Below, piece after piece: positions 20,184 through 61,591 of a DNA stretch of 64,000 nt. Made by a program: the position numbers and the translations under genes. The notes beneath the pieces are model-generated. The model saw only the letters and a list, made by a program, of their open reading frames with translations, was not told the origin of the DNA and searched no databases. The stretch is taken from the NCBI GenBank assembly GCA_050084515.1, contig CM114271.1, forward strand, positions 22,382,001 to 22,446,000, given 5' to 3'. The number at the start of each line of letters is the position of its first letter. The first letter of the stretch is position 1. This DNA is from Blasia pusilla (taxonomy: Eukaryota).

Positions 20184-22149
20184 GCCATGGAATTGGCGAC
20201 CATGGGAGTTGGACGAGCAGAGGTGTTCTGGATGGCCACCACGCTGTGTGAGCGTGGAGAGGTGACTGCCTCTCTTTTAGAGGTGATTGAGAAGAAGGTG
20301 GACTTGTCTTACGAGCAAGGGCTCGGGACATCCCCAACTTAGTCATGGCATGCTACGGCGGAAAAGTTTGTAGATATGCCAACTTGGCCATCGATAGAGT
20401 GAGCCATGATCACATCTGGTATGGTGTTGTTGGATAATTGGGAGTATTTTGCTTGGTTAGTCCCACAAGGATGATGTATCACTCGCAACGCATCCTACTT
20501 GCATTGATTTGGGAGCGTAGCCCTTCATGTTAAAGAAGGCGGCGTATTTGGAATTGGGGTTATGGAAAGGCAACATTGAGTATTGTCCCTTTTAGATACA
20601 AACCTCTATTAGGGGCAAATCACTCACATAGTGTATGACTCGACATGAGTTGGTGGTTAGACTCTAGCTAGAGCATGAGTCGGATCGATTGTGTGATTGT
20701 GCGCACGCGGGCGATTACGACACCAAAAGAGTATGATGTGTTGGTAGGGAGTACTGTGTTGTACCCCCTTAGTTTCATCCTATATTTGTGGGAGGAGACA
20801 ATTTTTGATCGATTAGCGTGCCAATCAAGTGATGAACGGATGAGCCATTGAATGGTGTAGTTTGCAAGATGTAGTGGTGGTCGACCACGTGAGGATACAA
20901 TGACCATGTTGGCAACATTCATGGGTGGTGTTAGCTAACCAAAAGAGTTGTTGGAGAGGTCATACATGCAGAGGAAATTCCCATTGTGGATAGTCCCGCG
21001 GAGAGACATGCTAGAGTGGATCTCTCTTCCCATGGTGCAGAGACCAATTTACCATTGTTGGGTACAAGCATTGAGTTGCATGGAGTACATGCGAGCTTGT
21101 GAGGCAAGCATGGAGCCGTGCCTGTTTCTTCGAGCAGAGAGAGACAATGCAAGTGACAATCGTGCTCGAGGATTGGAGACTTCATATTTTAGGGTACCAT
21201 ACATGTTGTGTGGCAGCGTTTGGAGCAAGCTATGAGAGTTTTAGATCTTTTCGGAGGGATCAACATGACGGATAACTACAGTGTTGTAATGTTGCGGGAA
21301 TGATGGCACCAATGGTGCTAGATGTGTATAGGATAGAAGATCATGTTGGGTAGATATGTGTGTGCTGTCTGGAGTTAGCGGGACCCAATTTCCAGCTAGG
21401 GAGGCAGTTGTGGGGTCTTAGTGTATATGTGTGAGTTTGTTTAATTTATGGATGGATTGATCCATGTGTTGGGAAAATCAATGGTGTGTGGTATGTATAT
21501 ATGATCAGCGATGTGGGTTATGTAGCAATGTGTATGTGTACGACACTTGTCACATCTTAGTTAGACGTAGGTAGAGTTCTATCGCGTCAATGACATAGAG
21601 GGTTAACAAGCTATTCGGGTGTAGCTTTGTTGGTAGAGATGTTGGATGAGGTTGGTGATAGATCTATTGCATTTGTGGCGATTTTCCTTGTTTGGTCTTA
21701 GTTAGTTAGGTGACCCGTTGATCGAGTCAACGGTCACCTGATAACCTCTGCACGCAGGTTACGGTTGGGATGGCCATTTTTGGGGGAAGAGCCTTTGGCT
21801 CTTCCCAAGGGTGTAAGAGAGGGAGAGATGGCTTTCCCAAGCTGTCTTTCTCATGTTGAGCCTTAGGAGCACCTCTCTTGCATGTGTGTGTATGAACTAG
21901 GGTGCTAGTGTCTAGATTCCCTCATAGCAAAGGCTGGATGTGGCTCCATATGCCAATGTAGATTCAGGAGTGGAGTTTTAAGCCGGGTGAGTTGTTTTTA
22001 CTCTGATTTTATTGTGGGTTCTCGGTGTATATGTGTGAGTTTGTTTCATTTATGGATGGATTGACATGCGTGTTGGGAAGATCGGTGTTGTATGGTGAGT
22101 AGATGTGACCAGCGATGTGGGTTGTGTAGCGATATGTATGCGCACGACA
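20184..22149 (+). mobile_element. Diverged, internally deleted relative of family A (A') with a B1-ct-A2-B2 3' end
   Basis: Decayed protease-region motifs (VLLDN, YDVLVG) and DNMT motif I (VLDLFGGI at ~21238). Direct repeats 21408-21545 and 22012-22149 (138 bp each, ending ACGACA) flank 21548-22011, which starts TGTCAC. Confidence 0.85.
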
Positions 22150-23526: not shown

Positions 23527-23599
23527 GCCGGCGTAGCTAAGATGGTAGAGCATTCCCACGGTAAGGGAAAGGCCTTCGGTTCAAGTCTGGTCGAAGGCT
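23527..23599 (+). tRNA. trnT: Mitochondrial-type tRNA-Thr(GGU), probably non-functional NUMT copy
   Basis: 73-nt cloverleaf. Anticodon arm TTCCC-AC-GGT-AA-GGGAA (GGT at 23560-23562) and T-loop GGTTCAAGT. Two mismatches in the acceptor stem. Confidence 0.85.
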
Positions 23600-32681: not shown

Positions 32682-35600
32682 GGCCCATCCTATCTAATTA
32701 CATATATCAAGAATCTTGTCACCACAATCTCATAGGAGGAACATTGTGCCCCATCTCTTCAACAAGTCTGGAATTTGAAAGGAGAATTAGTTATTATATT
32801 CGCGTGAAAGACACCCGGATAAGTTAGATAGTGAGAAAAACAACAACAAGTGAATGTAGAGGCCGTAACTATGACATGATGAGTTCATAGTTGAATTTTT
32901 TGATTATTAAACAAATAGGAAGAAATATTAAAATGAAAAGGGATATTGGAAAGTACATATAACACAAAAAGGGATGCATGTTTGTTTTAGTTCATGAGAA
33001 GTAATTGATAAGGCGTTTGTGCAGTACCTTTGGAAAAAAAAGGACTAAAGATGAGAAAATTTTGGGATTATGAGAAGAAAACGCTCGTAAAAAGAAGATA
33101 AAGGCTGATTTAAAAAATATGATGACCGCAAAACTAAAGAGAAGAACAAGGGTTTCATCACACTTATGTGTGATGGTCTATATTTAATCTAATACGTTGT
33201 ATGTTCAATCTACCATGGGAAATGCTAATAATGCACGTATATTTGAATCTCTCTTCATTTTTAAATTCTTGGATAATTTCTTCCATCACTCCACTTAATA
33301 GAAGTAGCACCATAAATGCTAGAGTACTAGCTCAAACATGTATTTCCTTCGACCATCATACCAAGATATACGTAATTTTCCATATTGTTGGTATGTTTTC
33401 ATGACGATCCTTACAAATCTTTGTTATTTACCTTGACCAAAACAAGGATCAACATGAAATAAGGGTAGTTAATATCTTGGGAGCATGGGGGAGTTTCATA
33501 AAGGTTGGATATGCTCTGAGACATTTGTACGAAGTAGCAATTTAGATCGAAGTAAATTCTTAGATTGCTAATTGACCTTTAGATAATGGTGATAAAACAT
33601 GGCTATCCATTATCGGCTCTTTAGAACTATTAAAAGTGTAAGAGATTATCCTAGTAAAGTCTAGTTATCCACTTGCAAGTCCACTTGTAATCCTCCAAAA
33701 AACACCCCCAAAAATGTAGGATATTCTAAGAAATCCTCATTATTTTTTACTAGAGGGCTTCAAGTGCCTAGAAAGAATACCCTAAAGAATTTACAAGAAT
33801 GCTAATAAATGTAGATATCCACTAGTAACCCTCTAAGAACAACATTTCCAAGAGTGAAAGATAATTATTATAAGATTACTTACATACTACGTGCCTCTTC
33901 AAAAAATAGTTTTAAGAGTACAAGATAACCCTAAAAATAATTGCTATAGAATAAAAAAAAACTCAAAAAAGTAACTTAATCTTAAGAAAACATAGTCATC
34001 AATCAATAGTCATATAGACATGGTATTCACATGACGGTAAGATAATCCTAATAAAAAAGAAACTCCTCCAAAATATCTTGTAAAAGAAACTCCTCCAAAA
34101 TTTAACATAATCATAAGAAAAAAATATACATACTAGAGACCCTCCTAAATGTGTAAGATAATTTTAATAAAGCGTAGCTTTCCACTTGCAAGAAATACTC
34201 TAAAACTTCTTTAATTGGATAACTAAAAAAAAACATATATAGCCTTGAATAACTCTCAACATCTAACATCTTCCATGATCATTTAAGGATGCTCATGAAG
34301 CACAAGAACTCACTTATACTCATCTTCAACTTGACTTGAATTAATACTTGATGTGAGCAAATGTAACAATGTAAGGATGTTGTAGACTATGACCTTTACT
34401 TCTTCTAGATTTACCGCAAAGAACTCCCAAACTTTAGATTTGCAAGAAAAATACTTAGGTTGAGTCCCAAAGACTCGACTGGTTGGGCGTTCTGTGGGTA
34501 GCTGAGAAACCGCTAAGTGCTAATTGGGCCTAGTCTCCCCTGTTGTGCGCATATACATCGCTACACAACATACATTGCTGTCACCAAACACACACAAAAA
34601 CACGCACGATCCCATGCTAAATTCATGGCATCCAAACAATGAGACAAGAAGTACCAAAATATCTCTAATAAAACAAGATCCAATCTCTCTCACAACACCA
34701 TAGTTCTCACATGTCTCTCTCAAAGTCAAACCAAACCCACTCTCCTAATGAGAGCCTTGGGTTACACTCACAAGGCAAAGGACCATAGCTCCGCTGCCTC
34801 GTGCCAAGAGGTTCAACAAAGAGAGAATGAGCTCTCAAGCTCTCTCTCCTTGAGGTATACCCCTCCCCTCCCCTAAGCTCTCTCCATGGTAAACTATGCT
34901 CCCAAGTCACCTCCTTGGCTCTTGACCTCATGTAGGAGGTCAAGGGCCATTTACCAAAAATAGAATTTTGCCCATTTACTCAAAATGATACTTACCTAAA
35001 ATAGTAAGTTCCTCAATATGGCTCCAAATGAGCTGAAATGAAGGGGAAACCTGCTCTCTCGGGTTTCCGGGGCCTCATCAGGTCATCCTTGATCTCCTGA
35101 GCATGTTCTCCACTACTCGAGAAGGTGATCTACTAGATCTCATTGATCTATTCTAAAAGACGTGACAACTGTCATGCGCGTACACATTGCTACACAAGAT
35201 ACATCGTTGTCACCAAACACGCACTTCTTGTCTCGTTGTTTGGATGCCATGAGTTAGCATGGCATCCAAAAAATGAGACAAGAATTACCAAAATATCTCA
35301 AATCGCCCCCCTAGATGGTGGTTAGGTCCCTCTAACTCTAGATAGCCATCTGTCCCTACCTACCATGACATACATCTCTCGGACACTACGAGCAAGAAGG
35401 CCGGGTTCTCATGTGGCCCCATCCTTAGTCGCCTTCTTGTCATCCATGTCACAGAAACAAGTTGGAATGTAGAACTACCTACTATATGTACATATGGGAC
35501 ACATCCATCGTCCCTGAGGAACCCTAGTGAGAAGTGGCGTCAAGCATGCCATATGCCATCCTCTCGAACATCCATCACAAACTAGCATAGTGGCTGCATC

Positions 35601-35975
35601 ATGGGCAGAACCACACAACATACATCGCAAGCATGCATGAACTACTACTAAGCTCGGATCAACTGTATTATCAATGTTTGGAAGGTGACACGCCGCACAG
35701 TTACGCACATGGTCCTTCCAAACCATACCATCGCGTCACTCCAATAAGAGACCACATGATGGCAAAACCTCACGCACTCTCAAGATGGTGCGCCCTGCAA
35801 TCACATCCAACGTCGTGGATGCCGTCTGTTGCAAGTAGACATAGTCTCCCTGATGAAACCTCCGGATAGTAGGTCAATAACCACCCCCCCGAATAGTCGC
35901 ATATCTCAACGTATCCCGATGTTGCACAATCGCCAAGTTCTCAAATGCCATGGGCATCACTCTCCAAACCCACTC

Positions 35976-36978
35976 TGTCGCGCCCCTACTCTCCTTGAAC
36001 GTCAATCTTTAGTGTTGCGGAAGCATACGTTCAGTAGGTCACGAACTCATCGCTGATCTGCACCCAAACACGCACTCTCGTTAGTCGGGTCTGGGCCAAC
36101 CAGCATTCCAACCCACCGAGTCCTCAACTCGGCGTCTCATCAAGCTCAACCTTCGTTAGTTCCTAGTTTCCAAAACATGGCAAGTCCTTCAAGACTTGGA
36201 ACAGACTTCCTGGTTAGTCCAGGGATCTGAAACGGCCCTTGCGCGCCTAGCGATCCCAACTGTTCAACGGTCCTCGGGTGAGTTCCGAACCGAGACCCAA
36301 GTAATTGAGTCGCGGGGTGGAATCCAAGAGGGATGTCTAAAATCGCCTCAATAGACTTGGTGCAGGTTTTCCAACCCAACCCCCAAACTCGTGTTCCGTT
36401 CCATGCCCTTGGGCCGCCCCGCGGCGCCCAAAGTGGGGTTTGGGTTCCAAGCACTCTCGGAGACCTTCCCCCTTACTAGTACTTCTGGGGTTCTCCAATA
36501 ACTCCTCCCCTTTGGGAAAAGAGGGTCGGGCCCTTCATTGTGGCCCTCAACCCGACTCCACTTACAGTCATTTTTGGGTTTTATCTCGGCCGTTGCTTAT
36601 GCGTTTGCAGCGATCTTTGGTGCGTTTGGACCGGCTCTCCATAAGCTTTCCAACGCACCCTTATTTGTTCCAAATACATCTAGGTGCTAAAATTTATGGC
36701 CATAAATACAGTCGGAAACTCTCAAACGCTAGTGGCGTTCCAAATCGAGATCTTTCCTTTGGCAACCCACTTCCTAGACTCGACTTCTTTCAAGTCTCAT
36801 TCCGCATTTGGTCCAGGTTTCTCAGTTGCGACCATAACATCTGAAACGCGACTCCTTGCTCGCATCTCGTCTCTTGTCTCCTCTTTGAGACAACTCCAAC
36901 GCGTAAACCATCTTAGCGTGAGCTCGCTAATGTTCCGATGTTCCGCTTGGCACTTGTTTGGTCATGAGGGTCGCGACA
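35976..36978. mobile_element. Solo LTR, family C (1003 bp), inserted in the integrase of copy 2
   Basis: Termini TGTCGCG...CGCGACA with 5-bp TSD CACTC (35971-35975 and 36979-36983). Confidence 0.95.
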
Positions 36979-39529
36979 CACTCAGCCCTCTAAGAATATG
37001 CTCGTATCCATACATCAGGGTCATCAAGGTTCGACACCTCACCAACATCTCGACGAATGGCCGCAGGTAAATCTGGCTCTCGGCCATAAAGTAGCAAGTA
37101 CGGTGAAAAAGACACTAAGGATGTCTGCTTGCTGAATCTAAATCCATCGCCAACCACGGAAATTGGAGATCCCAATCTCCTAGGTGACCTCTCTACAAGC
37201 CATGCTTGCGTAATCCTCTCTTCACCGTCCGTACAACCCTCTCCGCTAGTCCATCCGCCTCAAGATGATCTCGCGAAGTGGTGCGGTGGTCAATCAACGC
37301 TTGATCACACAAGGCCTGAAACTCCTCGCGAAACTCTGTACTATGGTTTGTCAACACCTCAGTTGGTGCACCGTAATGACTCAGCACTCCATCTAGGAAG
37401 GCATATGCTACTCCCTCACTTGCTTTGTCAGGCAATGCAACCAACTCTATCCACTTCGAGAAGTGCTCGACCATCACCAACACATAACGACTATGGTGCT
37501 CTGTGAAAGGCAAAGGTCCTGCAAAATCCAAACTCCATCTATAACGTAAACCCATGATCAAAAGTGGATGCAACTGTGGAGTCAAAGCATTGAACGATGC
37601 TCAGACTCGATCACACACCATGCAATTGGCAACAAACTGTTGAACGTCAGTCTGCATGCCCCACCACCAATATTGAATCTGGAGCAAGCTGTACATCCGC
37701 GTCACTAAAAAATGACCCAACTCCTCATGGGCATGACGCACCAAATGTGCTCTCTGCAAAAGTGAGGCACTACACACACTCTACCATCCTCCCACACTTG
37801 CAACACATGTGCCCCTCCCATCGAAACTGTCTGGCTTGCTGTAGGATCCGATCCCGCTCTCTAGCACCCATTGTGCTCGCAACGCTGCCAGTACAAAGGT
37901 ACTCCAAGGCCACACCATCATCGTGAATGTCTCCGCCAGCTGTCGTCTCCTCACCGGCCTTTGGATCTAAGGACTCTCCATCAGACCTCGCCATCGAAGT
38001 CTCAACAATTTGGCTCTCCATAGCCAACAAGCGTTGTTCGAGCGACTAGCGTAAGCCACCACTAACTCTCTACCATCATTGTCATGCAAGGTGAGCACAG
38101 CTCTAAGCCCCAACATGCTCCAGCCGATATGCAACTGGAAAGGACGCCCCTGATGGGTCTCCTCAATATGGGCACGGACGTCAATATGTCCTTCAGCATA
38201 TGAAATGATCTCTATTGCTCATCCCCCCAGTGCCACTCCTCATCCACCTTGGTCATCAAGGTTAGCGGCTTTGCAATCGAGCTGAAACCCTTGACGTACC
38301 GTCAATAGAAGTTTGCCAATCCCTTGAATGAACGAACTCGACTCACATCTGTAGGGTGTGGAATGTGTGAAATAGCCTCTACCTTTGTCTGTTGCACACC
38401 AAGGCGCCCACGGTATATTGTATGACCCAAGTACTCAATGTGGTCGTAGAAGAACTTGCACTTGCCTGGATGTAGCTTCAGCCCATGTAATTGCAATCAT
38501 TGAAATACCTCCTCTAGATGTCGCTCATGCTCCTTAACCGTGGTGCTAAAGACTACGATGTCATCAATATAACACCTAGCAAAATCCAGACTTGCCAAGA
38601 TCCTATCCATGACCCTCTGAAACTCAGCCGGGGCATTCTTTAACCTAAATGGTATGAACCGTCACTGGTACAAACAATCCTTTCCATGAGGATCGATGCC
38701 CCAAAATGCCGTCTTCTGCGTGTCCTCCAATCTGATAGGCAGCTGATGGTATCCGGCTCGCAAATCCAATGAACTAAAGACCTTTGCATGCCCTAATCGC
38801 ATCAAAGATCTCCTCAGGGCTGGGTATGGCATACCTATCGGACTTCGTGTGCCGATTGATAGGTCTGTAATCTCCACACATTCGCCTATCCATCTAGTTG
38901 CCATGCATATCCTTCTTGGCGGGCATGAGAGTGGCAGATGCATACTCTCCATGCGATATCTCCACTAGTCTTGCTCCAACCAAGTCTTGGCTCCTACTAT
39001 GAATCAGAGCCCTCTCCATGTCACTGTATTTGGAGGGTTGTCGAAAAATTGGCGTGTCACTCGACAACACAATACGGATCCTTGGACCCTTTAGCATACC
39101 AAAATCATGCATACTAAATGCAAAACAACTCCTATAACTCCTAAGGAACTAGTGTATCCGATGCCGCTCTCCTCCTGTCAACTTAGGGCCCTCATCTAGC
39201 TCCCAAGTCTCCATCGTGACTACGGTAGGACTCTTTGGCACGGATTTCGGTGGTTGCTATGGTGCAACCCCGTCTCGAAAAATAGAACCCTCATCTCCAC
39301 GTGCAATACCTGGAACCACGCTCGATGCTGTGGCTATCATCTCCTCGCGTATCTGAAAAACATCCCAAGAAGTCCAAGGGTGTCTCCCCCGATCACCCTT
39401 GGTGTGTCGCCCTCCTTTGGTCTCGCCCCCAACCACTGCCTCAACCATCTCGATAGGCATGGGGCTCACAAACGAAACTTTTGTCATCTGTTGCATCCTC
39501 AAATGACGTTGCTCAGCTACTCCTAAGCT

Positions 39530-40475
39530 GAAAATCCATGTCAAGCAATTCAGGTCCATTGCCTAACCCAAGACATGACATCGTGATGGCTCTGATAGTG
39601 ACGATACTGCCGTCACTCCTGTGGAGAATCCCATCGCTCGCTCTCGCTCATCGACGTTGGGCTCCACCAACCTCTGTACGTGGTCATCCCAAACCAAGCC
39701 AGGCTTGGCCTCCTTGAATGTATAGGAAGCGGGAAAAATCACCAATGTGGGAAAGGATGCTCATGGCATGCCAATCCTATTGATCACACTCAAGGCGGTC
39801 GTTCATCTAGCCTCACTGCTTGTGATCGAAGGCTCGGATCCAATATGGAATCCACCAACAAATCGGAGGGGCTCTCCACTCTCGCATATGCCCTCCGTAA
39901 CACCTCCTGTGGTACCAAGTTGGTCCACCAAAGACATGAACAATGTGCTCGTGAACCCACACTCGCTGCATCGAACAACACTGTCGGGCCGATCCATACG
40001 CGCACATGATGCGCACTCGTCACCATGCCGGACCTTGAATCGCCCAAAATTGGCACATTCTCCAAAATGTATGTTGGAGAAAAAGGCTAATGCTCATGTA
40101 AATATTGCAAGATCCGCATCATTTCCCAAAACAACCAGGACCGAGTGTTAGCTAATCCACTACCTCGTCTAGCACTCGATTGGCCTTGACACGGCCAACC
40201 AACAATGACCAAGTCTATTGTCCCTACCTGCTCCAAGTCCTGCGCCCCAAACAATGAAATGTCCCTCGGTAGGGAACTCTCGTAACCCTGAATGGCCCAC
40301 GCAAACAACAAGTCGGGAAAACAGAGGCGTAACAATGCCACATGGTGAAGTGAAGCGCGCCTCGCAACATCATCAATCTCCACATACAGGTACTGCAGCA
40401 CGTGCACTCCAACATGCAAAACAACAGCTAACCTAGTGCTAATCCCTCCAAAGAGATCCAACACTCGAATACCCT
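39530..40475 (-). pseudogene. C5 cytosine DNA methyltransferase domain with all major motifs, DNMT3-like (copy 2)
   Basis: Motif I VLDLFGGI (~40461-40441), II YVEID, III DI, IV IDLVIVGWPCQGQS (40200-40180), V GL..TRS.LFWE, VI ENVP, VIII LWWTN, IX ERERAMGF..GVT, X HVLG*AMD. Confidence 0.92.
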
Positions 40476-43400
40476 TCCCTAGGATGCACCACACAATCGA
40501 GGTGGTGTCCAAAGGGGTCATAGCAACACTCCTACCTACTTGGGGTTCCTCTGACCCGTCATACTATGGTGCAAACGTCTAGCTCCATGCAGTTGGCACA
40601 TGCTCAGTCGCTAAGCATCAAAGCTCCTCAGTCGAGCCCCAAAGTGGCACCTCTCCTCCATGGACTCATGGCATTGCTAAATGCTGCTAAGGTCGCCATC
40701 TCTCCTAGCCGTCGCTCGATCACTACACCTATGAATCGAATGGGTAATGAGCTAAGGCGCCCATCACCTGATTGCCATCTTGGTCTGTAGGACGCTGACT
40801 CCTCCTAGTAATCCAGGGAAAACCCCATCGGGTGTAACACTACTCCACCAACCAAGACGTCGTAGGACTCTGTATCAGTCACTATCGCCTTGGCTCGCAC
40901 CATGGACTCATCTATAGGATGTCCCAAGAAAATCCTCATCACGACCTCCTGTCGGGTGATATACTGTGTGGTACTTGCTCCACCCAAGGATGTCTGTATC
41001 CGAAATGGACAACGCTCCACATTGGCTCTTGTTAAGCCCAGTCCTTTGAATGACGCTTTCCCCAACATCAGGGGTTGCGCTCTTGAATCCAACAAGACGC
41101 GCTATGGACTAAAAGCTCTACCTCCGGGACTCACTAACTGGAAGACCTCTCCCCGATTATCCAACAACACGACACCAGGAGAAACCATGGCACGCTCTAT
41201 CGCGGGTCTAGCGGGCATCTCCGCCATCCTAGCAGCCGTAGCCTGCCATGAATCTGACGTGGACGGCCCAAGCATCCGCTCCAAGGGCAGGTCCATCACC
41301 TCCTCTGCAATCAACTCTCAACGTGATGGAGGAACTCCAACTCCACGGTCACATAGCATAACGGCCAGCCAAAAAACCTCGGCGGGCATACCTTCCAACG
41401 TCATAACATCACAAGCAGAAAATAAAGGAGCGCGGTACACAACGGTGGCCGCCCCCAACAACGTGCTTGACACATGCTCCTCCTGAGCATTAGCAATTAT
41501 CTTGGTCTATTTCCTAGCTTCCCCTCATTGTGGATCCAACTCTGCGGCTGCTCCATGGTCACAACTACGGCGGCCTCTATCTGGAAAACCCTGCACATCC
41601 AACCAGGATCCTCCATATCTCTGGCTGCACCATATAATATCGATGCCACGGATCCGACATTGGGTAACCTCAATGCCATAGCGGAAATATGCTCCTGTAG
41701 TTGTTGTATATGAGCAGCCATCCCAACCTCACACATGGCATTTCCCTCGACGTGTCTAAGTGGTGGGACTCTACCTCCTCCACGGACAACTCCACCATCC
41801 TTTTGGGCAACTCCAGCTCCTCATATCCCAACGGGACCACCCGATGCACGATCTCTAGGCCCACCCGCATTGGCTACTCGCTCTGGTGCCCTCTCTCGCC
41901 CTCAGTCCGGACGTAACTCAGGGTGTAAACTGAAACTCCTGGCGCGTGTGTGACCATACTTTTAACAATAGTCACACTGATAACCTCATGGTGCAGCACC
42001 ATCTCCTCCTCCATGATGAGGCACCCGTCCATGATCCTGATGAGTGCAATCACGATGATGATGGGCTCCACCACATGACCAACAAGTAATCATAGGCGGC
42101 GGCTGCTGTTGAGCCGCATATGAAGGCGCAGGTCTCTGTGGCAAGGCCTCTTGGTATTCTCCCTGAGCTCATGGTGCCAAAGTCGACCTATCTTGGAGTC
42201 CACGTTGCTCCACTGGTGATGCAGACAATCGTGATTGCTCTCGCCTAGAACCAATGGTGGCTACGCTCTCCTCCGCCATGTTGCGCTCAATGTTCTCAAC
42301 GGTCCTAACCCGGTCGTCCATCTTGTACGCCCAACTGGGGGGACCACTCAATATGTACGGTGGATCACTAACACACTCCTCTACATGCTCCCCCTTGTCT
42401 GCAGATGACACAGAAGGAGATCAAGGTGGTCTCCCATGTGGAGACCCCTGAAACCTCGTACCACTCCGAGTAAATCCTCCAGAGCTACTCTCAGGTCCAC
42501 TACCTCGTCTCTCAAAATCCTGAAAGGACGCCATGATGGCCCTTGTGCCCCTCTCATACGATCAATCTCAATCTCACAAGTAATCCCTCAATCACTAAAA
42601 CTAAACATTTGGCACTCAATCTACACTCTCTCACTAAGACGTATGCTATGCGGAAATAAGCGGCGTAGTCCGAAAAATCAACTGATCTATTGTCTCATCG
42701 ACAAACCATCCTCAACTCTGGACATTCCACACAAGCCTATGTCCCCTAAACCCATACATCATCAATGCTCTCAGAATCAGCATGAAACCCAATATCCCAA
42801 ATAACTTCCCAATACCCGGAAATCCCTCACATGTACAGGGTAAGAGACCAGAATGGGTAACCTCACAATAATGTTAATGTCGCTCCCCGGCAAGTGCAAA
42901 TCTCAACCCCAACTCGGTCGTGAAGAAAACTCATCCAATCAGCAAGTCGTACTCCTCTTGTACTAAGGCTGCTCAACCTACTCGATGTGCAGTGCAGGTC
43001 CAGAGTTCTGGTGCGGCACTGGCGGCACGGAATGGCTACAAACGGCACGACACTCGAGAATGGGGTGCGGCACTTGGCGGCATATCCTCCTCAATTAGCA
43101 ATTCACACGCTCTGCTCCTTAGTGAAGGAGCGGCTCCATGATCGAGACGGTGCGATGCGGCCACGAGCGGCACTGTACGGCAATTTGGCGGCCCGTTGCG
43201 GCTACGGGCGTCACGGCACGGTACTCGATCGTCGTCGAGCGGCTACCAATCACAACATAGTAGCATGAAATGAAAACTCAAACACCTCTGGTTTAGGGTT
43301 TGAACAATTTAACCCTAAAAATCACCTAGAAATGGCAGTTTTGCAAGATTGACCATAACTTTTTGCTCGCAACTCCAAATTATGCACCATCTATTGCACA

Positions 43401-45149
43401 ACGTGCACAACTTCACGATCTACGACAATGTTAAAAAATGTTTTAAATCAGACATTCCTATAAAAATATACAAGGACTGCTGTAAAGTCCAATGTCCCTT
43501 TTCTCCTCCACAAAATTTGATAGCGCTTCCGCGCTGATTTCTTCCAAAAAAAATATAAAACTTGTGAGAACACAAATCAGCAAGCTACATGGTGCTCCCA
43601 AGAGCATTGGCATGGAGCAATCCGCTCCCATACTCAATTCTTATCAAAAATTGGGAAGCGGTTCTGCGTGCCACTATCCCGTACAAAAAATCAGCAAAGC
43701 AAAACAACAAACTCGCACGGCTCTTGCTCCGGTGTGCACTCCAATGAGCCATGAAGCAAGGAATACCGTCCCCCAATCTGCACCAAACATCAAGCAACCA
43801 ACGAGCTCCCCCATAAAGCTCTCTCACTCACTCATTCTCTCTTTGTAAAACAAGATCCAATCTCTCCCTCACAACACCGTGGTTCTCACATGTGTGCACT
43901 CTCACATGTCTCTCTAAATGTCAAACCAAACCCACTCTCCTAATGAGAGACTTTGGTTACACTCACAAGGCAAGGGACCATAGCTCCGTCGCCTTATGCC
44001 AAGAGGTTCAACAAAGAGAGAATGAGCTCTCAAGCTCTCTATCACGACTATTAGGATAGATCGGTGGGATCTAGCAGGGAGTCTTCACGAGAAGTGGAGG
44101 ACAGGCCGAAGAGGTCGAGGATGACATGCTGACGCCTTGAGAAACCTGAGAGAGCAGGTTTTCCCTTCGTTTTGGCTCATTTGGAGTCATAGAGAAACTT
44201 ACTATTTTGGGTAAGTTCCCATGTTGGGGATCATTGACTTTCCACTTTGGGAAGTGGTCCTTGACCCGCTACAGTAGGTCAAGAGCCAAGGAGGTGACGT
44301 GCAAGCATAGGTTAACGTTGAGAGGGCTTGGGAGAGGGAAGGGAGTATACCTCCAAGAGAGAATGAGCTCTCAAGATCTCTCTCCAAGAGAGAAAGCTTG
44401 AGAGCTCTCTCTCTTGGAGAGAGGTCTCATTCTCTCTTTGTTGAACCTCTTGGCATAAGGCGGCGGAGCTATGGTCCCTTGCTTTGTGAGTGTAACCCAA
44501 GCCTCTCATTAGGAGAGTGGGTTTGGTTTGACATGAGAGAGAATGCACACCTTTGAGAGCTATGGTGTGAGATGGTGTAGAGAGAGATTGGATCTTACTT
44601 TACAAAGAGAGAATGAGAGAATGAGAGAGTGAGAGAGCTTCATGGGGGAGCTCGCTGGTCACTCGCTGTTTTTGCAGGTTGGGGACCGTGTTCCCCATTC
44701 AGCGGCTCATGGGAGTGCTCACCGGAGCAAGGGCTGCTTTGAGTATTCTTTGCATTAGCCGATTTTTCGTGTGGAAGAGTGGCACGCGGAAGCGCTATGA
44801 TAATTTCTGATAGGGATTGATTATGGGAGCGGGTTGCCCCATTCCGGTGCTCTCAAGAGCACCATGTAGCTTGCTGATTTTTATTTTTACAGGTTTTCCA
44901 TTTTCGTTGGGAGAAAGAGACATTGGGCTTTACCACAGTCCTTGTCAATTTTTACTCGAGTGTCCAATTCCAAATATTTTTTAACACCATTGTAGATCGT
45001 GAAGCTGTGCACATTGTGCAATAAACGGTGCACAATTTAGAGTTGCAAGTAAAAAGTTATGGTCAATCTTGCAAAACTACCATTGCTAGGCAATTTTTAG
45101 GGTTAAATTGTTCAAACCCTAAACCACCCGCCATCGTCATAGTCACCGT

Positions 45150-45275
45150 CACCGATCAACGGTAAACCGTTACCATTAATGGTCAATCATCACCATCAAT
45201 GGTCAACCATCACCGTCAACGGTCCTTCGCCACCATCAACGGTCAACCGTCACCATCAACGGTCCACCATCCACC
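45150..45275. repeat. ~20-bp tandem array (CACCATCAACGGTCAACCGT-like) in the 5' leader of copy 3
   Basis: About 6 degenerate units within a ~350-bp segment that is absent from copy 2. Confidence 0.75.
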
Positions 45276-47630
45276 GGCCACCGTCAGCCGTTGCCGTTGC
45301 CAGAGCCGCATTTGGCCGTTGTCCACCCTTTGGTTGCCATTGCCGCCATAACGAAGTGGAGGGTCTTCCACGACCACCGTTGATTCTCTGACTTGCGCCG
45401 TCACCAAGTACTTTGGTTTGGCCGCCACCGTCATCGCAGTTTCGTGATCAACTAGTGATGGTAGATGACCTCCGATTATGGTGTTTGAGTTTTGATTTTA
45501 TGCTGCTATGTTGTGATTGGTATCCAATCGATGACGATCGAGTATCGTGCTGTGATGCCCGTAGTCGCAACGCGCCGCCGATTGCCACTCGTGGCCGCAC
45601 CGCACCGTCTCGATCGCCGAGCTGCACCGTCATTGTAGAGCAGAGTGTGGGTTTATTGTTGATTGAGGAGGGTATGCGGCCGAGTGCCGCATCCCACCAT
45701 CGAGGGCCGTGCCGTTTGTAGCCATTTTGTACCGCTTGCAACGACGTACCATTATGTTGGAACCGCACTGTCCATCGAGGAGTTTTGAGCAGCGTCAGTA
45801 CGGGAGGAGTATGACTTGCTGATTGGAGGAGTTGTCTCCATGATCGAGTTGGGGTTGAGATTTGCAGTTGCTTAGGAGCGACATCGACATGCGTTCAGGT
45901 TACCCATTCTTGTCCTTTACCCTGCACGCGTGTGGGATTCTGGGGATATTGGGTTGTGTGGATGCTGAGAGCATTATTTATGTATGTGGTTTAGGGGACA
46001 TAGACCTGTGTTGGATGTCCAGAGTTGAGGGAAGGTTATCGATGAGATGATAGCCTGGTCAATTTGCCACACCACGCCTCTTGTTGTCGCACGTTACACG
46101 TCTCGGGGAGGGAGAGTGTAGATTGAGTGCCGCATGTTTGGGATGAGTGATTGAGGGATTACTCACAAGGTTGAGAGTGATCGTGTGAGAGGGCCACGAG
46201 GGCCACCATGGCGTCCTTTCAGGATTTTGAGATGCGAGGTAGTGGACTTGAGAGTAGCTCTGGAGGGTTTATCCGGAGTGGTGCCAGGTTTGGAGGGTCT
46301 CCACGTGAGAGACCACCTCGATCTCCTTCAGTGTCGTCTTCAGACAAGGGGGAGCGTTGTCGTGTCGAGAATCTTTCTTCGAGCAAGGGCGGGCCTTCTA
46401 GCTGCGGTAGATGCGGTCGATGCAAGGTGAACTCTCTAATAAGTTCTCCTTTTTCAATACAAAATTATGATGTACACTCTCCATTCTCTCACGACAGGTA
46501 TCACAAATGGAAGTGCCGAGGCGATCACTTCTTCGTAACATCGGACCCCGAAATTCCTAACTATAAAATCCATATAAACTATTTTACGTTTGTACACGAG
46601 GAAGATAGCACAACTAGTGTTAAACCCTACTTGACCAGGCCTATTGACATCCATGGATCGCTATATAAGGACATACAAAGTACAATCCCATGTCCTTCCA
46701 TATGTGACGATAGGAAGAATCACCGGAGTTGGAGATTGCATGACCTGGTTCATGAACGCCTCCCCAAAGTGATAAACTAAATAGCGAGTGAACCAGTGCC
46801 TATCTACAAAGAGTACCTTGGCATGGTAAGGATTGAGGAAAGGAAAGTCGGGCACAGCTCGTGCTCCACCCCTATCCATGCTTGACACACATTCTCTACT
46901 CTCCTCAAGAATGGGTTTTGGCGGAGTTATTCTCCCAAGAGGGGTAATCCACTCTCATTGGGGAAGTAACAAGCCAAAACTTCCGCTATTTTAGTATGAC
47001 TAAACTCCTCTACGGTGACAAACCTCTCATCCCCACACACACACACCACACTCTAGAAATCTCTCAAAGAATAGACCATAGTCAAGTTACTCTCCCAAGA
47101 GGGGTGATCCACTCTCATTGGAAGAGCAAGCAATCCCAAAGCCATACACTCAAGAGAGACACGAGAGACTCAAGATGTGGAATAGAAGGATATGAACCCT
47201 TGAAGGTCCCTCCTCTTTATATACTCACAAGGGATCCACAAGAGTACGAAATAGAGCTTATCTTATCTTGTGCCACATGGCTTCCTCTCAAGGCTTAGCC
47301 AATCACATTTTGACACAAGTAGATTTCCTCTTATCTCTTCCAAAATATCCTCTTTTACCCACATGATATTTTCCAAATTACCCCAACTAACCTAGCCACC
47401 AACCAAGACTACTTTTGCTTTTCATTAAAGCAACTACTTTACTTTTATAAAGTCATCTTTTATTTATTACCTCCTTTTCCTAAAGTTGGGCCCGCATAAA
47501 AGAGGCACCATAAAGAGGTTTAAACATAAGAATCTCCTTTTTCTAAGCCAATTTACTTAATACTAATGAAACTCTATCTAACACTTAATGACGAACGAGT
47601 TTACACACTGGTTGATTTTACTATACGACA

Positions 47631-47642
47631 TTCATCCCCTCC
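47631..47642 (-). promoter_or_regulatory. Polypurine tract of family B
   Basis: GGAGGGGATGAA immediately precedes TGTCGT of the 3' LTR. Confidence 0.85.
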
Positions 47643-47725
47643 AAACCTGCACATCCTCCGGTATGTGCCCAAAAACATCAAGACTTCTTGCTATAGACTT
47701 ACTTATGTTGTGCCTCTAGACACAT

Positions 47726-50700
47726 TCAATCGAAATCAAGAAATCCTTCACGTCTACGGAAAATCTTGACCCTTTTTCCTACAATGGGCAGCTTGAGAAT
47801 TGTGCCATCTAGTTCACGTAGTTTGTAAGTGGCATTGTCAAAAGCAAAGACTATAACATATGGACCAAACCAACGACGTGCAAACTTCTTAATTGTAGTA
47901 TGCTGGTTGTCAAGGATGTTGTCGTGCACCAAGACCCAATCTCCTTCTCTTATCGGCTCCTTCCGAAGTCGATGAGTTTTGTCGAAGCGCTCCTTATTTT
48001 TCAACCTTGCTTCCTTCATTTTGACTAACGCTTCTGCAATATCCTCTTCCCGCCGCTCTAGCTGCTGCATTCGAAGTGCTAGGAGCTCTTCCCTATTGAG
48101 CCCGTCTTCCCACGACAAACCCATCCAAGTGGGTATATCTCCTTCTGCTGGCATTATCGGCTTTTGACTGTCATCAACTCAGAGGCATGAACCCCTCAGA
48201 ATGGTGCCGTGAGTGGTTCTATCGCCCATAAAGCAAATGGAAGTAATCTAGGCCAATCAACATAACGATCTCCACACGCCTTTACCAATGCTTGAATGAT
48301 TGGCGGATGTCCCCTTTCGCTCTTGCCGTTTGCCTCCGGATTCATGGAGGTTGTTAATCTCAACTGGACTCCATATCTCCTGAAGAACTCTCGTGCTTCC
48401 TCCGCATTCAACTCACCTCTATCTGCACGGATTCTCCCGACACTCCCATATCTAGCAACAATATCCTCTAGAATAAAACGACATATAGGCTGTTGTTTTA
48501 GCCCGTAAAGCCCTCCCTTCTACAAAGTTGGACAACTCTTCTCGTGCTAGGACCAGTAACGATTCCCCAAAGACCTAGTGGCATAGCAACTAGATCTATA
48601 ACCCATTGATGATGAATAGACAAAGGATATGTGGGTTTAAGTCCATCTCTCACCCTGATTTTTGATTGAAACTGACATTCAACACACGACCCAACATATC
48701 TCTCAACATCCTTATATAGGCCTTTCCACCAATACCTCTCTTTTATCTTGGTGAAAGTTGCCCAAGTACCTCTGTGACGTGCCCATAAAGAATTGTGGAA
48801 TTCTTTGAGCACTTGCATTTTTGTCCCATTGTCATCCACCACCCTCAAGGGCATTCCATCTTTCCTCTTTGGCCTTTTCCAAAGATATCCATCTTGTAGT
48901 AGATAGCCATACGCCTTGTGCCGAATCTCCTTGAAGAACTTTTCTGTCCACCCTCCATCTCTTTGCAGAGTGCTTAAATAGCGCCCAATTTCTTTTAACC
49001 TGCCCTCATACAAATCCTCTTTGAAGGATAGAACATCCTCTATGCCACCTTGTTCTTGAGATAACACTTGCCACACATGTGCATCATCCTCATCTATCTC
49101 AGTTGCCTCCATATCTTCTTCTTGACTAAATCTAGCTCTAGACAACATGTCAGCTACTGAGTTCTCTTTCCCAACTATATGCTTCAATTGTGGATTCAAG
49201 GACCTAATGTAGGCTATCCAACGTAGCATGGCTATATCTGGAGTTGTACAATCTTCGCAATCATACCTAACAAAGGTAGACAATCAACCTCAAGCAATAC
49301 ATAGGCTCCCATAAGATACTCCTTCTCGCTTTCATTGCGTTACAACTCCCCAAAGCTCCTCTTTACCGAGGGTACCTCCTCAATCGTTCCAGTAAGTGTA
49401 TGAGCTCCAAACCTTGTCGCAAATCTTCTTCCTTCCGTGTCATCCTCGCCTAACCGCCCATCCGATAGCAATAGGGCTAGTGTCCTTGTGATGATAATAG
49501 GTCGTCCGCATTCGTAGCTCATTTGTCGTAAAACAAGTGGCGACTTCAATGCCTCCTTCAATGCATCATTCTTTGCTCTTTGCTTCTTCTCCCAAGTGAA
49601 CTTCTTCTTCTTTCTCAACAACTCATACAAAGGATCAGATATGTGGCCAAAATGAGGAATCCACACATGATAGAACACACAAGCTCCTAAAAACCTTCTC
49701 ACTTGGTGCGTTTTTGCATTCTCGTATCCTCCCAATGACATCAACTTTTGCTGGATTTGGTTTGGCCAAACTCTCCACAAAGATGACCCACTACCACGAT
49801 CCGAGGAACCCCAAAGCTACACTTTTCTCCGAAAGAGTAAGATTGACCTCTTCTAGTCTTGTTAGGATCATATCCACATCTCGAATATGATCAGACACAA
49901 ACTTTCTACACCCATCTTTCACAACCCTCTCAATCCTATCTTCTATTGCACATCCCTTTATAGGGATATCATCTACAAAAGGAATGGTTTTCTCAGGAAT
50001 GAACTCTCTCAAGATCTTATTCATTGCACTCTACATGTGAGCGATAGAATTTGTTGCTCCTTGAGGTAATGTGCACAATCTTACAAGCCCAAGTGGAGTG
50101 CGCATAGTGGTAATATCTCTACTCTCTGTAGCTAATTGGAATTGATCATATCCTGAGTGCAAATCTCCTATAGAATAGATAGCACGGGCTGCAAAAGCTT
50201 CTGCGACTTCATCTATTCTAGGCCCTATGGGAGCAGGGCCTAGAATAGATGAAGTCCCATATTTCGAATGGTTACCTTATTTTCCGGTTGCATATCTTGA
50301 ATGAACCGGAGAGCTCCTGATTTCTTCGACACAGTGAACCATTGACTCGAGTAAGGCCCCATAGATGGCTCTAAGATACCCATCTGCATCTTCTCCTTCA
50401 ATAACTCAATCAGCTTGGGAATCATAGCTTGTGGTACTGGTATGGGTTTCAAATCCCAAGGCACATGTGGAACTGTGAAAATTACCATCAGTGCCACTAC
50501 ATTCGTGTCTACACAACCAATTTCTTGTGTAGTAAAAGAGAAAGCCTTACCATGTCTCCTTAACATCTCCCGAAAGCATTTTCTTTCAATTTCTGTGAGA
50601 AACTCAGCCCCTCCGATTTGCAGACGATCTAGCGTCTCTTCTGTGAACTTGTGTCCTATCTTCTTGACATCCCGCAGACTTGGCTCCATTGATGCACGTT

Positions 50701-53514
50701 CTACTTGTCTTCCACAACCCTCTGGTAGTTGAGTAGCAATTGGTTTCACTTTCCGGGCCACTATCTTGTATTTTGTGTGCACTTGTGCCTCCATGGGATG
50801 TTCGTCAGACTCAAACCCGTGCCCATCCGCTTCCTTCTCCGTAGATTCATATTCATTTTCTCCTTCCATGAACCTTGATATCTCTTCATGCAACTCACGC
50901 GAGTGAATTGCAATCACACTTCTATCCAGCGAATCGGTGTTCATCTGGGTAAACACCTCTTCAAGACTATCTCCAAAACCCTCTTCTTCATACATCCCAC
51001 TAATGAACTCTTCATCTAATAGAACACCCTCACATTTTAACAAACCCTTTTTTTTTTTTATAAAACGTCTTTTCTTTTCATTCATTTCTTTCATCATTTG
51101 GAATCTATTAGACCACGAAGAAAAACATTGAGAAAACCCACACCTAAACATATATGATTCTTCCCCCTCTACTAGCGGAAGACTCTTTCTATTCTCTGCA
51201 CCCCCATATTCCCGCTCTATAGGAGTGCTAACTAAAAATCCGAAAACTCTTTCTCTACCTTCATAGGACCATCTCTCAACTTCTCTCTATTCCTTTCATG
51301 ACCTATTAAAGAAGGAATTGAACTGATCTTGTTCCATCCTCGACTTCTAATACGGGCATAATGAGACCCATCATCCATGACTTTGGTCTCCATTCTAGAT
51401 CTTTGTGATGTAAGGTTGCCCAAGAATCAGAATAAGCGGCTCCATTCGAACAAAGAAATTTTGCTCAATCAACACATCTCCGATACGAGTTTTGACGGAT
51501 GGACAAGCACCATAGAGTTCACCTTTTTGGTTGTTAGCCGCTCGTAGTACCCATCCATGCCCTATATCAATTGGCCACATCCCTTTGTCGTACACACTTC
51601 GTGACATGATGTTGATCTCTGAACCATGATCAATGAGAGCCGTAATCGACTCTTGAAGAGAGCCAAGTCGAACTCTAGCCTCCGTCGTTGCACGCCCAAT
51701 ATGATCGAGAATAGTGTCCACCATTATGCCTTTCTTCACCTTGTTCTGTCAAGGCTTCTCCTACTCTCGCCTCTTTTCCCCGTAAGTCAAGCTTTTGTCC
51801 AAACACTTGGCAAAGCTCTTCATCTTCTTCTTCTGTGATGTCAGTATCCAAAGCTCTCACCATCACCATATCTGCAGTCATCTGCCTCTTCCTTTGGATC
51901 ACATCTATGATCAACTCATGAAAGTCACGTTTGGCTATGCCCAAGACTTCCCTCAAAGAAAACTCTATTTTCGCATCCAAAATCCTCTCCTCAAGAATCT
52001 CCTTTAAATTCGTGCTTGTCTCGATATGAGACTGCAACTTGTATGTAGGAGTCTTACCCTTGGTCTTCTGAGGAGACCTCAATTCGTTCTCCTTGGTCCC
52101 TGCTTCTTTGACATGAGAATCCCTCACAGATTCAGATGTGGAAGGTCCTTCTTCTCTTGATGGCTACGCCTCCGGTTGTTCTTTTCTTCTTAAGGTCCTT
52201 GCTCTTCTTGCGGCTTCCTCAACATCAACACCATCATTATCGCGTCTCCTCTTCTCCTCCACACTAGCATCTTGCCAACTCACATGTTTCTCTTGTGCTA
52301 GGTATGCTTTAACACACCCAGCTTCCACTGGATCATCCCATCCAGTCAGATGACGGATAGTCTGCCCCTCGTATCATAACTTCTCGAGGAAATTCTAATG
52401 ATTCACTTTAGCTACAGATACAATAGGCGCTTCAATTTTCTTTGCAAAGGTGTCGAATCTAATGTCGAGTGGCAACTCCTACTTGACTTCTCACTAATCC
52501 TTTCATACCTCCTCTACCAAAGTTGGTATTCAACAAAGCATACGGTCTGCGTCGAATGAATCTTCCCATCTTTGAAGTTTACTATTCCATTTCTAAGAGC
52601 TTCTGAAAATTCCTCACATTCTCGACGTTGATGCTCAACACTATCACACCATATACATCTTCTCACAAAGTTCTTACTTGTTGAAGGAGCACCAACACTA
52701 GGATTCCTATCAAGTTTAAGCTCAGCCATTTCTACTCTTAACTCTCTCAAACCTTTCACCAACTCATCAATGGTAGAATCTTCAAGCTTTGTTGGCATGG
52801 GCTTAGGCAATGGATTTGAAATTGGTACCTCCGACTTGAATACTGTGGTTCTACCTCTACTTCGACTTTGCTTTGTGAGGATAGCAATGACTTCTTCCAC
52901 TTTCTTCCAATTAGTCCGACACCTCCTTCTTCATTCTTGTCCGCCAACATTATGAAAAGCTTGTCCTCCAAATTCTCATCTACCGCCTCAAGGAATAACT
53001 CGGTTTTCCTCAAGTCTAGAGTTGCCCTTTCAGAAGGAGAAAGCTGAAAAAACCGCTTCTCAAACTCACGCAACAATTCATTTGGAGTCATTCCCTTCCC
53101 TGGACGTTGCTCTATCCATTCTAGAAAACTCCTCTTAGTCACCCGATCCACATCATCATCGAAGAATTCTCCTTTTAGCAACTGTTCGTACTCCTCCCAT
53201 GAGGTTGGATTTTCTGCTCTCAACTTCTTTACTTGACTACGGATCTCTGGTATTACAGCTAACTCAAAACTTGACACCATATCACCTTCGGGTACACGGT
53301 TTACCTCCATCTCACAAACGTACTCTCGAACATACTTGGTGATGTTCCTGCCATCAAATCTCCCCAACTTCTTCACAATCGCTTGGAGAGCCCTTGTTGA
53401 TCTTTGCTCTCCGATGTGAACTCCTCCTTGTTGGCTCAACAATGTTGTCAAAGTTCGGAGAAGATCCTCAGCTCCCTCAGTTCCCATTGATGAAGTACTC
53501 CCAAAAGTAGTCAT
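47726..53514 (-). pseudogene. Family B gag-pol, frameshifted
   Basis: Gag (GRFDGRNIT), knuckle CIWCDSVEHQRREC, protease LIDHGSEIN, RT (RFIQDMQP, FVDD), RNaseH (RWIAYI..NSVADMLSR), integrase (WWKGLYKDV..C..C, NPEANGKSERGH, WFGPY). No chromodomain. Confidence 0.95.
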
Positions 53515-53560
53515 CTTGATACGACTCCAACTTGCAAACACAAACAACCGCCTCAAAGAG

Positions 53561-53578
53561 CTCTCAGTGGAAGCACCA
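53561..53578 (-). promoter_or_regulatory. Primer-binding site of family B (tRNA-Thr-like)
   Basis: TGGTGCTTCCACTGAGAG lies 2 nt after the 5' LTR. Its complement CTCTCAGTGGAAGCACCA resembles the 3' end of plant cytosolic tRNA-Thr(AGU) as I recall it. Confidence 0.75.
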
Positions 53579-54851
53579 TTTATTGTGTCGAGAATCTTTC
53601 TTCGAGCAAGGGCGGGCCTTCTAGCTGCGGTAGATGCGGTCGATGCAAGGTGAACTCTCTAATAAGTTCTCCTTTTTCAATACAAAATTATGATGTACAC
53701 TCTCCATTCTCTCACGACAGGTATCACAAATGGAAGTGCCGAGGCGATCACTTCTTCGTAACATCGGACCCCGAAATTCCTAACTATAAAATCCCTATAA
53801 ACTATTTTACGTTTGTACACGAGGAAGATAGCACAACTAGTGTTAAACCCTACTTGACCAGGCCTATTGACATCCATGGATCGCTATATAAGGACATACA
53901 AAGTACAATCCCATGTCCTTCCATATGTGACGATAGGAAGAATCACCGGAGTTGGAGATTGCATGACTGGTTCATGAACGCCTCCCAAAGTGATAAACTA
54001 AATAGCGAGTGAACAAAGTGCCTATCTACAAAGAGTACCTTGACATGGTAAGGATTGAGGAAAGGAAAGTCGGGCACAGCTCGTGCTCCACCCCTATCCA
54101 TGCTTGACACACATTCTCTACTCTCCTCAAGAATGGGTTTTGGCGGAGTTATTCTCCCAAGAGGGGTAATCCACTCTCATTGGGGAAGTAACAAGCCAAA
54201 ACTTCCGCTATTTTAGTATGACTAAACTCCTCTACGGTGACAAACCTCTCATCCCCACACACACACACCACACTCTAGAAATCTCTCAAAGAATAGACCA
54301 TAGTCAAGTTACTCTCCCAAGAGGGGTGATCCACTCTCATTGGAAGAGCAAGCAATCCCAAAGCCATACACTCAAGAGAGACACGAGAGACTCAAGATGT
54401 GGAATAGAAGGATATGAACCCTTGAAGGTCCCTCCTCTTTATATACTCACAAGGATCCACAAGAGTACTAAATAGAGCTTATCTTATCTTGTGCCACATG
54501 GCTTCCTCTCAAGGCTTAGCCAATCACATTTTGACACAAGTAGATTTCCTCTTATCTCTTCCAAAATATCCTCTTTTACCCACATGATATTTTCCAAATT
54601 ACCCCAACTAACCTAGCCACCAACCAAGACTACTTTTGCTTTTCATTAAAGCAACTACTTTACTTTTATAAAGTCATCTTTTATTTATTACCTCCTTTTC
54701 CTAAAGTTGGGCCCGCATAAAAGAGGCACCATAAAGAGGTTTAAACATAAGAATCTCCTTTTTCTAAGCCAATTTACTTAATACTAATGAAACTCTATCT
54801 AACACTTAATGACGAACGAGTTTACACACTGGTTGATTTTACTATACGACA

Positions 54852-61277: not shown

Positions 61278-61591
61278 AGGAGATACTAGGTAGGTTTCGA
61301 TTCTGACTTTTTTTGTGAGATGGATGACAGGAAGGCGACTAACGATGGGGCCACATGAGCACACGGCCTTTCTGCTCTTAGCATCCTAGAGATGTATGTC
61401 ATGGTAGGTAGGGATAGATGGCTATCTGGAGTTAGAGGGACCTAACCACCAGCTAGGGGGGCGATTGGAGATATTTTGGCACTTATCGCCTCTGTGTATG
61501 GATGCCATGAGTTAGCATGGGATCGTGTGTGTTTGTGTGTGTGTTCGATGATAGTGATGTATGTTGTGTAGCGATGCGTATGTGCACGACA

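Follow-up and report, generated by a model that had tools for sequence, protein, structure and literature searches.

The closest described relative of the element reported here is KnitGypsy-Dnmt3, a retrotransposon of a charophyte alga that joins a gypsy-type Pol polyprotein to a nonpermuted DNMT3-like methyltransferase domain. We found the same combination in a retroelement that is present in three copies within one 64-kb stretch of DNA (the window, whose first letter is position 1), as revealed by self-comparison and protein-guided mapping; the DNA identity among the copies is 75 to 90% and varies by region. Our analysis makes it very probable that the three copies are decayed insertions of a Ty3/gypsy-type element from the Gypsy-DNMT3 family of KnitGypsy-Dnmt3 and that the host is a bryophyte, probably a liverwort, so that this case differs from the algal one in its host and in that all of its copies are dead. 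The element is not an independent novelty, because its retro-DNMT family also includes a Klebsormidium nitens polyprotein with the order protease (PR), DNA methyltransferase (DNMT), reverse transcriptase (RT), RNase H (RH), and integrase (INT). Judging from sequence, the Gypsy-DNMT3 family is not new, being known from K. nitens, and is found in liverworts as well.

KnitGypsy-Dnmt3 carries DIRS-like repeats in the arrangement A-coding-B-A-B around its gypsy-type coding part (de Mendoza et al. 2018, PMC5890265, legends of Fig. 1e and 4c), and both these split repeats and purifying selection on the domain are shared with the window family. SymbioDIRS-Dnmt3 of Symbiodinium likewise has a DNMT3-type domain inside Pol and A-coding-B-A-B repeats, and in yeast it was shown to methylate CG sites de novo, but its description sets it apart as a DIRS element of a dinoflagellate with a tyrosine recombinase instead of a DDE integrase (PMC5890265). 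The EpiLTRs and DAM-LTRs are also long terminal repeat (LTR) retrotransposons with DNA methyltransferase modules; according to a preprint, they differ in having a DNMT that groups as the sister of DNMT4 and that is added 3' of the rest of pol, with an adenine methyltransferase and a chromodomain alongside it (10.64898/2026.05.21.726589). This preprint treats "streptophytes (Gypsy-DNMT3)" as an earlier case of a separate kind, and both it and PMC12344493 place retro-DNMT3 in "streptophytes" with reference to de Mendoza et al. 2018. We found no paper describing a retro-DNMT element of a land plant, and the supplements of PMC5890265 and PMC12344493 may list bryophyte sequences.

A DNMT3-like domain inside gag-pol

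On the minus strand of copy 2, the domain reads in canonical order from LDLFGGIS (motif I, starting at 40461) through YVEID, GWPCQG, ENVP, GSRAH..LWWTN, and DERERAMGF to AMDLN (motif X, starting at 39562). Motifs I, IV (PC), VI (ENV), VIII (RxR), IX, and X have the canonical order in relatives, too. With a Pfam cut-off of 22 bits, PF00145 matches a 158-residue piece of copy 2 (40087-40563, minus strand) at 31.8 bits (E = 1.3e-7) and copy 3 at 31.7 bits (57780-58043), and it scores 25 to 46 bits in relatives. The same piece of copy 2 matches relatives at an E value of 1e-45, which excludes a chance match. A nonpermuted cytosine-5 methyltransferase between the protease and RT of a gypsy-type polyprotein, as initially proposed, is thus borne out by motif order and by PF00145 scores above the cut-off. 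In copy 3, where Pfam also recognizes rve, Integrase_H2C2, RT_RNaseH, and PHD domains, frame 3 contains the Gag knuckle, PR, DNMT, RT, RH-INT, and PHD alike, so the proposed single frame from Gag knuckle to PHD stands, even though it is interrupted by 23 stop codons (between 55752 and 61253) and the N terminus of gag lies in another frame.

The type of the methyltransferase was assessed on an intact relative, P0004 (368 residues). In a phmmer search of the PDB with P0004, DNMT3A, DNMT3B, and DNMT3C ranked first, followed by tobacco DRM, Arabidopsis DRM2, and bacterial enzymes (E values of 6e-12 for DNMT3A, 1.4e-9 for DNMT3B, 1.2e-8 for NtDRM, and 3.5e-4 for HaeIII), and a profile of 38 retro-DNMTs gave 3e-25 for DNMT3A, 1e-15 for NtDRM, and 5.5e-9 for HhaI. 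An AlphaFold model of P0004, made with the 38-member family alignment, reached a mean confidence (pLDDT) of 92.3, and among the matches listed by Foldseek for the PDB, it found DNMT3A/B/C throughout (E values of 1.8e-18 to about 1e-15), with TM-scores of 0.79 to 0.85 against chains consisting of the methyltransferase domain alone and a sequence identity of about 20 to 23%. The 38 aligned retro-DNMTs do not vary at C140, E183, R223, N230, E323, and G327. These residues comprise the catalytic Cys, the Glu of ENV, an Arg of motif VIII, and residues of motif IX. The permuted motif order of DRM enzymes is not the case here, and DRM structures match over the motif I-IV half only and with weaker E values than DNMT3. 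Because DNMT3A/B/C are closest in the sequence, profile, and fold searches, the assignment of the domain as DNMT3-like, already made in the preliminary description, is supported at the level of sequence and predicted fold.

In host DNMT3 enzymes, the catalytic domain is typically preceded by PWWP and/or ADD reader domains. Pfam found neither in the relatives P0002, P0005, and P0006, in which gag and protease lie upstream instead. Host DNMT3 proteins of animals and bryophytes (the DNMT3A/B structures and PpDNMT3, PMC6453930) share with the retro-DNMTs the canonical motif order, besides being their best sequence and fold matches, while the retro-DNMTs are embedded in gag-pol, are only about 23% identical to them, and have a longer target recognition domain (TRD) that is conserved within the retro-DNMT family.

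Relatives, architectures, and split repeats

The RH-INT frame of copy 3 is 75% identical to a sequence of the liverwort Calypogeia fissa and 76% identical, over 40% of the query, to one of the moss Sphagnum fallax, and a gag-PR-DNMT gene model of Marchantia polymorpha is 56% identical to the decayed copy 2 piece. With the liverworts Calypogeia and Marchantia as the sources of its closest named relatives, the element likely has a land-plant host, in agreement with the setting that had been proposed; in the ESM Atlas, the nearest cluster consists of eukaryotic sequences, Streptophyta being the commonest phylum. The combination gag-PR-DNMT occurs in open frames of P0002 (943 residues), P0005 (726 residues), and Marchantia P0006. 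Among the 208 long proteins matched by the copy 3 RH-INT frame are many RT-RNase H-integrase-PHD polyproteins, several of which contain PF00145.

One of these relationships leads to the charophyte case. The K. nitens protein P0039 reads DNMT-RT-RH-INT by Pfam and has a protease match upstream, which gives the same PR-DNMT-RT-RH-INT order as in the window element. Over 260 residues that include the TRD, its DNMT and that of the liverwort-type P0004 are 44% identical (E = 6e-58), and copy 3 RH-INT is 51% identical to a K. nitens DNMT-bearing polyprotein; the suspected relation to the Klebsormidium element is supported. We infer that P0039 is one of the elements of PMC5890265, the text of which gives no gene identifiers.

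A second architecture, RT-RH-DNMT-INT-PHD (e.g., P0048 and P0058), has a DNMT that is 40% identical to P0004 over 375 residues. These polyproteins belong to the same retro-DNMT family and share the RT, RH, INT, and PHD modules with the window element, but their DNMT sits elsewhere in Pol, they form a separate and well-supported clade, and they are the commoner type: among 214 DNMT-matching proteins, the domain lies behind RT/RH or directly before INT in 118 and behind PR or before RT in 33, while it stands alone in 62 and is oddly placed in 1. This type (P0048, P0058, P0132, and others) includes a Haematococcus lacustris protein, P0141. Some polyproteins with DNMT between RNase H and integrase exceed 3,000 residues, and P0142 additionally contains PF01585 and PF00293. 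The extent of the family is illustrated by a phmmer search with P0004 of 1.84 billion representatives, which yielded 4,268 matches at E values of at most 1e-3, 965 at most 1e-10, and 269 at most 1e-30, the last being clusters at 50% identity.

We built an unrooted tree of 68 DNMT domains (LG+G4, quick search, SH-aLRT supports) from 26 PR-DNMT-RT rows (P0004 among them), 39 RT-RH-DNMT-INT rows out of 112, and the remnants of the three window copies, with breaks set to X. The window copies form one clade (support of 100) that joins Marchantia-type sequences (99), and they lie outside the single clade of the RT-RH-DNMT-INT rows (99). The Klebsormidium DNMT falls on their side of the split with the best support.

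A scan with a four-row alignment as the query recovered 72 related loci from eight metagenome records, all with DNMT at the same place. Their DNA identity of 73 to 76% to the window copies implies a host other than that of the window. L003 is the only one of the 72 with a full-length, stop-free DNMT; three short fragments at contig ends are also stop-free, and the remaining 68 contain stops or frame changes. Three of the ten long loci examined (L028, L046, and L056) show the arrangement A1-internal-B1-A2-B2, with an A1 of about 320 to 340 bp, an internal part of about 8.5 kb, and a B1 of 115 bp, A1 and A2 being 89 to 91% and B1 and B2 92 to 94% identical. The 3' end of copy 2 has the same B1-A2-B2 arrangement.

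Decay, selection, and transcription of the window copies

Every copy in the window carries stops, frameshifts, deletions, or altered catalytic residues, so nothing can work at this locus, and none of the three combines intact catalytic residues with an open frame. The preliminary description had spoken of a complete enzyme. This is accurate for the motif content of copy 2 and fails for its reading frame, which has three in-frame stops, one frameshift (at 39793), and a stop inside motif X; moreover, both arginines of its motif VIII are replaced by Cys (RxR reads CxC). Copy 1 has GCPCHS as its catalytic loop, ENM as its motif VI, and no motifs I-III, and copy 3 has additionally lost about 138 residues of its RNase H region (at 59774/59790). 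The domain does occupy the same place in copies 1, 2, and 3, as had been claimed, with the reservation that the TRD and motif X are missing from copy 3. The further claim that it is partly present in a fourth remnant (A', 20166-20989) had to be abandoned, as only gag-PR and no DNMT was detected there at E values of at most 0.01.

Private changes are biased toward C>T/G>A in copy 1 (148 versus 43) and copy 2 (102 versus 46) and hardly so in copy 3 (100 versus 82), in which 7 of the 23 stops are a single C>T/G>A step away from the codon of another copy. C-to-T hypermutation was considered as the source of the stops and rejected on these grounds; the weak bias of copy 3 and its 7 of 23 stops point to ordinary decay of methylated DNA and no special process.

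The ratio of nonsynonymous to synonymous substitution rates (dN/dS) between window copies was calculated by the Nei-Gojobori method, skipping codons with stops or gaps. It was 0.22, 0.24, and 0.57 for DNMT motifs I-VIII, 0.38, 0.38, and 0.47 for RT, and 0.23, 0.26, and 0.51 for RH-INT, while gag of copies 2 and 3 gave 1.06. Neutral evolution of the domain, with a dN/dS near 1, had been named beforehand as a finding that would refute the original claim, and it is not what these values show. Because they are well below 1, they indicate that the DNMT was under past purifying selection while its lineages were active. The constraint seen here (0.22 to 0.59, including the metagenome loci discussed below) is weaker than the dN/dS of <0.2 published for KnitGypsy-Dnmt3 (PMC5890265), as expected for dead copies.

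Transcription was examined in three RNA runs that share their species label with the best-matching DNA runs. At a likeness of at least 85% over positions 35000 to 44100, they contained 5,097, 5,585, and 5,229 reads, most of which were less than 95% alike, and first mates lay on the plus strand about 10 times more often, which under the customary strand rule for such libraries would make the RNA sense with respect to copy 2 on the minus strand. Diverged members of the family are thus transcribed. Read depth with the first mate on the plus strand was 8 to 43 in the DNMT bins versus about 50 to 190 in most RT-INT bins, a difference that may reflect the higher divergence of the DNMT part alone.

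The features of the window are listed in Table 1. The element that splits copy 3 is separate from the DNMT element. Its LTRs measure about 1,270 bp, its coding part is fragmented with an integrase zinc-binding domain on the minus strand, and its flanks AGCGT and AACGT are likely a 5-bp target duplication with one mismatch. Immediately past the 3' end of copy 1, two more LTRs of this element's family stand in tandem (16991-18267 and 18343-19621), and they are 87 to 95% identical to the element's own LTR pair. The homology of copy 3 ends after the inverted 182-bp piece of repeat A, which indicates that the 3' end of this copy was rearranged.

Table 1. Coordinates of retroelement copies and their parts in the 64-kb window
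Feature	Position	Strand	Details
Copy 1	12650-16993	+	5' truncation inside DNMT at motif IV; 3' end cut by LTR of another family
Copy 1 DNMT remnant	12650-13460	+	Motifs IV-X; 1 frameshift, several stops
Fourth gag-PR remnant (A')	20166-20989	+	Strongly diverged
Copy 2, whole element	34540-44043	-	A1 remnant, leader, gag, PR, DNMT, RT, RH, INT, PHD, B1, A2, B2
Copy 2 repeat B2	34540-34669	-	Direct repeat of B1, 75% over 138 bp
Copy 2 repeat A2	34669-35165	-	73% identity to copy 3 A1 over 568 bp
Copy 2 repeat B1	35169-35303	-	
Copy 2-only inserted repeat	35976-36979		About 1 kb; not in other copies
Copy 2 RT-RNase H-integrase	36980-39417	-	84% DNA identity to copy 3 58312-60789; several frame changes
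Copy 2 DNMT	39422-40509	-	Motifs I-X and TRD; frame -2 down to 39793, then frame -1
Copy 2 protease and stretch upstream of it	40664-41434	-	Frame -1
Copy 2 A1 remnant	43846-44043	-	Adjoins copy 3 head to head
Copy 3	44042-46355 and 54855-61773	+	Split by younger LTR element of another family
Copy 3 repeat A1	44042-44602	+	
Copy 3 leader	44603-46355	+	Homologous to copy 2 42387-44031
LTR retrotransposon inserted in copy 3, younger and of a different family	46362-54851		LTRs 46362-47630 and 53585-54851, 99.4% identical
Copy 3 gag-pol	54934-61280	+	gag N-terminal part (54934-55338) in frame 1, a frame other than frame 3; all from 55539 in frame 3
Copy 3 DNMT remnant	57630-58346	+	Motifs I-VIII and IX kept; TRD and motif X deleted; 5 in-frame stops
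Copy 3 repeat B1	61464-61591	+	
Copy 3 inverted piece of repeat A	61592-61773		182 bp; homology stops behind it

Part of the 1-kb insertion of copy 2 is 73% like positions 19623-20128, and most genomic and transcribed members of the family are without it; the joint 35965-36980 lacking the insertion was seen in reads of the RNA runs and in one contig of a DNA run. Where copies 2 and 3 meet (43846-44602), a 380-bp piece of repeat A is bordered by inverted copies of the terminal 200 bp, 30-nucleotide direct repeats lie at 44014-44043 and 44355-44384, and RNA reads show opposite-strand joints. A single inverted duplication was considered for this head-to-head arrangement (about 44032-44420), but copies 2 and 3 are only 77 to 90% identical, so that the arrangement is either old or derived from two insertions; candidate origins are a pair of insertions, an inverted duplication, and recombination. 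Elsewhere in the window, Pfam found no host gene among ten other open reading frames, and an Rfam tRNA match of 35.4 bits at 23527-23599 on the plus strand, which was not called by ARAGORN, is possibly a tRNA-derived repeat or a pseudogene.

Alternative explanations and implications

Several observations weigh against the reading of the window copies as decayed Gypsy-DNMT3 insertions in a probable liverwort. The best matches behind the liverwort assignment are at most 75% identical. In the gene model of P0039, motifs I-II are unaligned and EHV stands where others read ENV. The tree places Klebsormidium among the PR-DNMT-RT rows without resolving it as sister to the liverwort clade, and it is itself an unrooted product of a quick LG+G4 search with only 39 of the 112 rows of the second architecture. 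In the decayed metagenome copies, DNMT is less constrained than RT-RH, with a median dN/dS of 0.59 (31 loci, 456 pairs, 5 of them at 1 or above) against 0.35 (19 loci, 133 pairs, none at 1 or above). In each run, only 23 to 27 RNA reads reach a likeness of 99% or more to copy 2, so this locus is hardly transcribed, if at all, and the strand rule of the libraries is not on record. Since all three window copies are broken, the window tells nothing about activity. Finally, the domain of KnitGypsy-Dnmt3 gave no methylation in yeast, a result that its authors term inconclusive (PMC5890265).

This yeast result is also a reason to consider that in active members the domain might not be a cDNA methyltransferase at all and might instead act on RNA or RNA-DNA hybrids or serve as a DNA- or chromatin-binding module, and RNA methylation was raised by the same authors for another class (PMC5890265). 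We regard such a role as unlikely. All 38 aligned family members share the catalytic Cys, the Glu of ENV, and the Arg of motif VIII, the model of P0004 superposes on DNA-bound DNMT3A/B, and human DNMT3B failed in the same yeast assay (PMC5890265), which makes the negative result weak. We give still less credence to an independent capture of a host bryophyte DNMT3 by a land-plant gypsy element, with the likeness to Klebsormidium arising by convergence. Recurrent independent acquisitions are stressed in PMC5890265, and such a capture would also fit a DNMT tree that holds no named host DNMT3 sequences and in which Klebsormidium is not resolved as the liverwort-clade sister. However, the 44% identity to the K. 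nitens retro-DNMT extends through the TRD, compared with about 23% to DNMT3A in the fold alignment, and in both elements the domain sits between PR and RT; they also share the unusual A-internal-B-A-B repeat structure (PMC5890265, Fig. 4c legend), and the RH-INT part, too, matches a K. nitens DNMT-bearing polyprotein, at 51%. An artefact, in the form of a host DNMT3 pseudogene or an assembly chimera beside retrotransposon fragments, might be suspected in a region that is a nest of repeats with rearranged ends, but it is refuted, because DNMT recurs at one and the same position in the three copies (75 to 90% identical), in copy 3 in frame with PR and RT, and because the 72 metagenome loci and open reading frames from other organisms have it there too.

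Decayed insertions of the Gypsy-DNMT3 family remain our preferred reading. In intact relatives, one gag-pol frame encodes a Gag zinc knuckle, an aspartic protease, the DNMT3-type cytosine-5 methyltransferase, RT, RNase H, an integrase of the DDE type, and, at the C terminus, a PHD finger, and split direct repeats flank the element as A1-internal-B1-A2-B2. The methyltransferase would be made as part of Pol and may travel with RT and integrase to methylate the new cDNA or the integration site, which could let a new copy enter the genome already marked or could tune its own expression, and the PHD finger may help to choose the chromatin for integration. Beyond this, it is conceivable, if rather doubtful, that Gypsy-DNMT3 elements with DIRS-like repeats have been in liverworts since their common ancestry with Klebsormidium, or arrived there by crossing, and that transcribed, live copies exist elsewhere in the genome.

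Retrotransposons with their own DNA methyltransferase reverse the usual picture in which the host silences the transposon, and retro-DNMT elements have so far been described for dinoflagellates and one charophyte alga. The window and its relatives in Marchantia and Calypogeia put the Gypsy-DNMT3 family, with its odd repeat structure kept, in land plants, and the large family with its two architectures offers a source of naturally intact domains for an assay of activity. Should live Gypsy-DNMT3 elements exist in liverworts, a DNMT3 encoded by a transposon would methylate cytosines de novo in the nuclei of bryophytes, in addition to the enzymes of the host.

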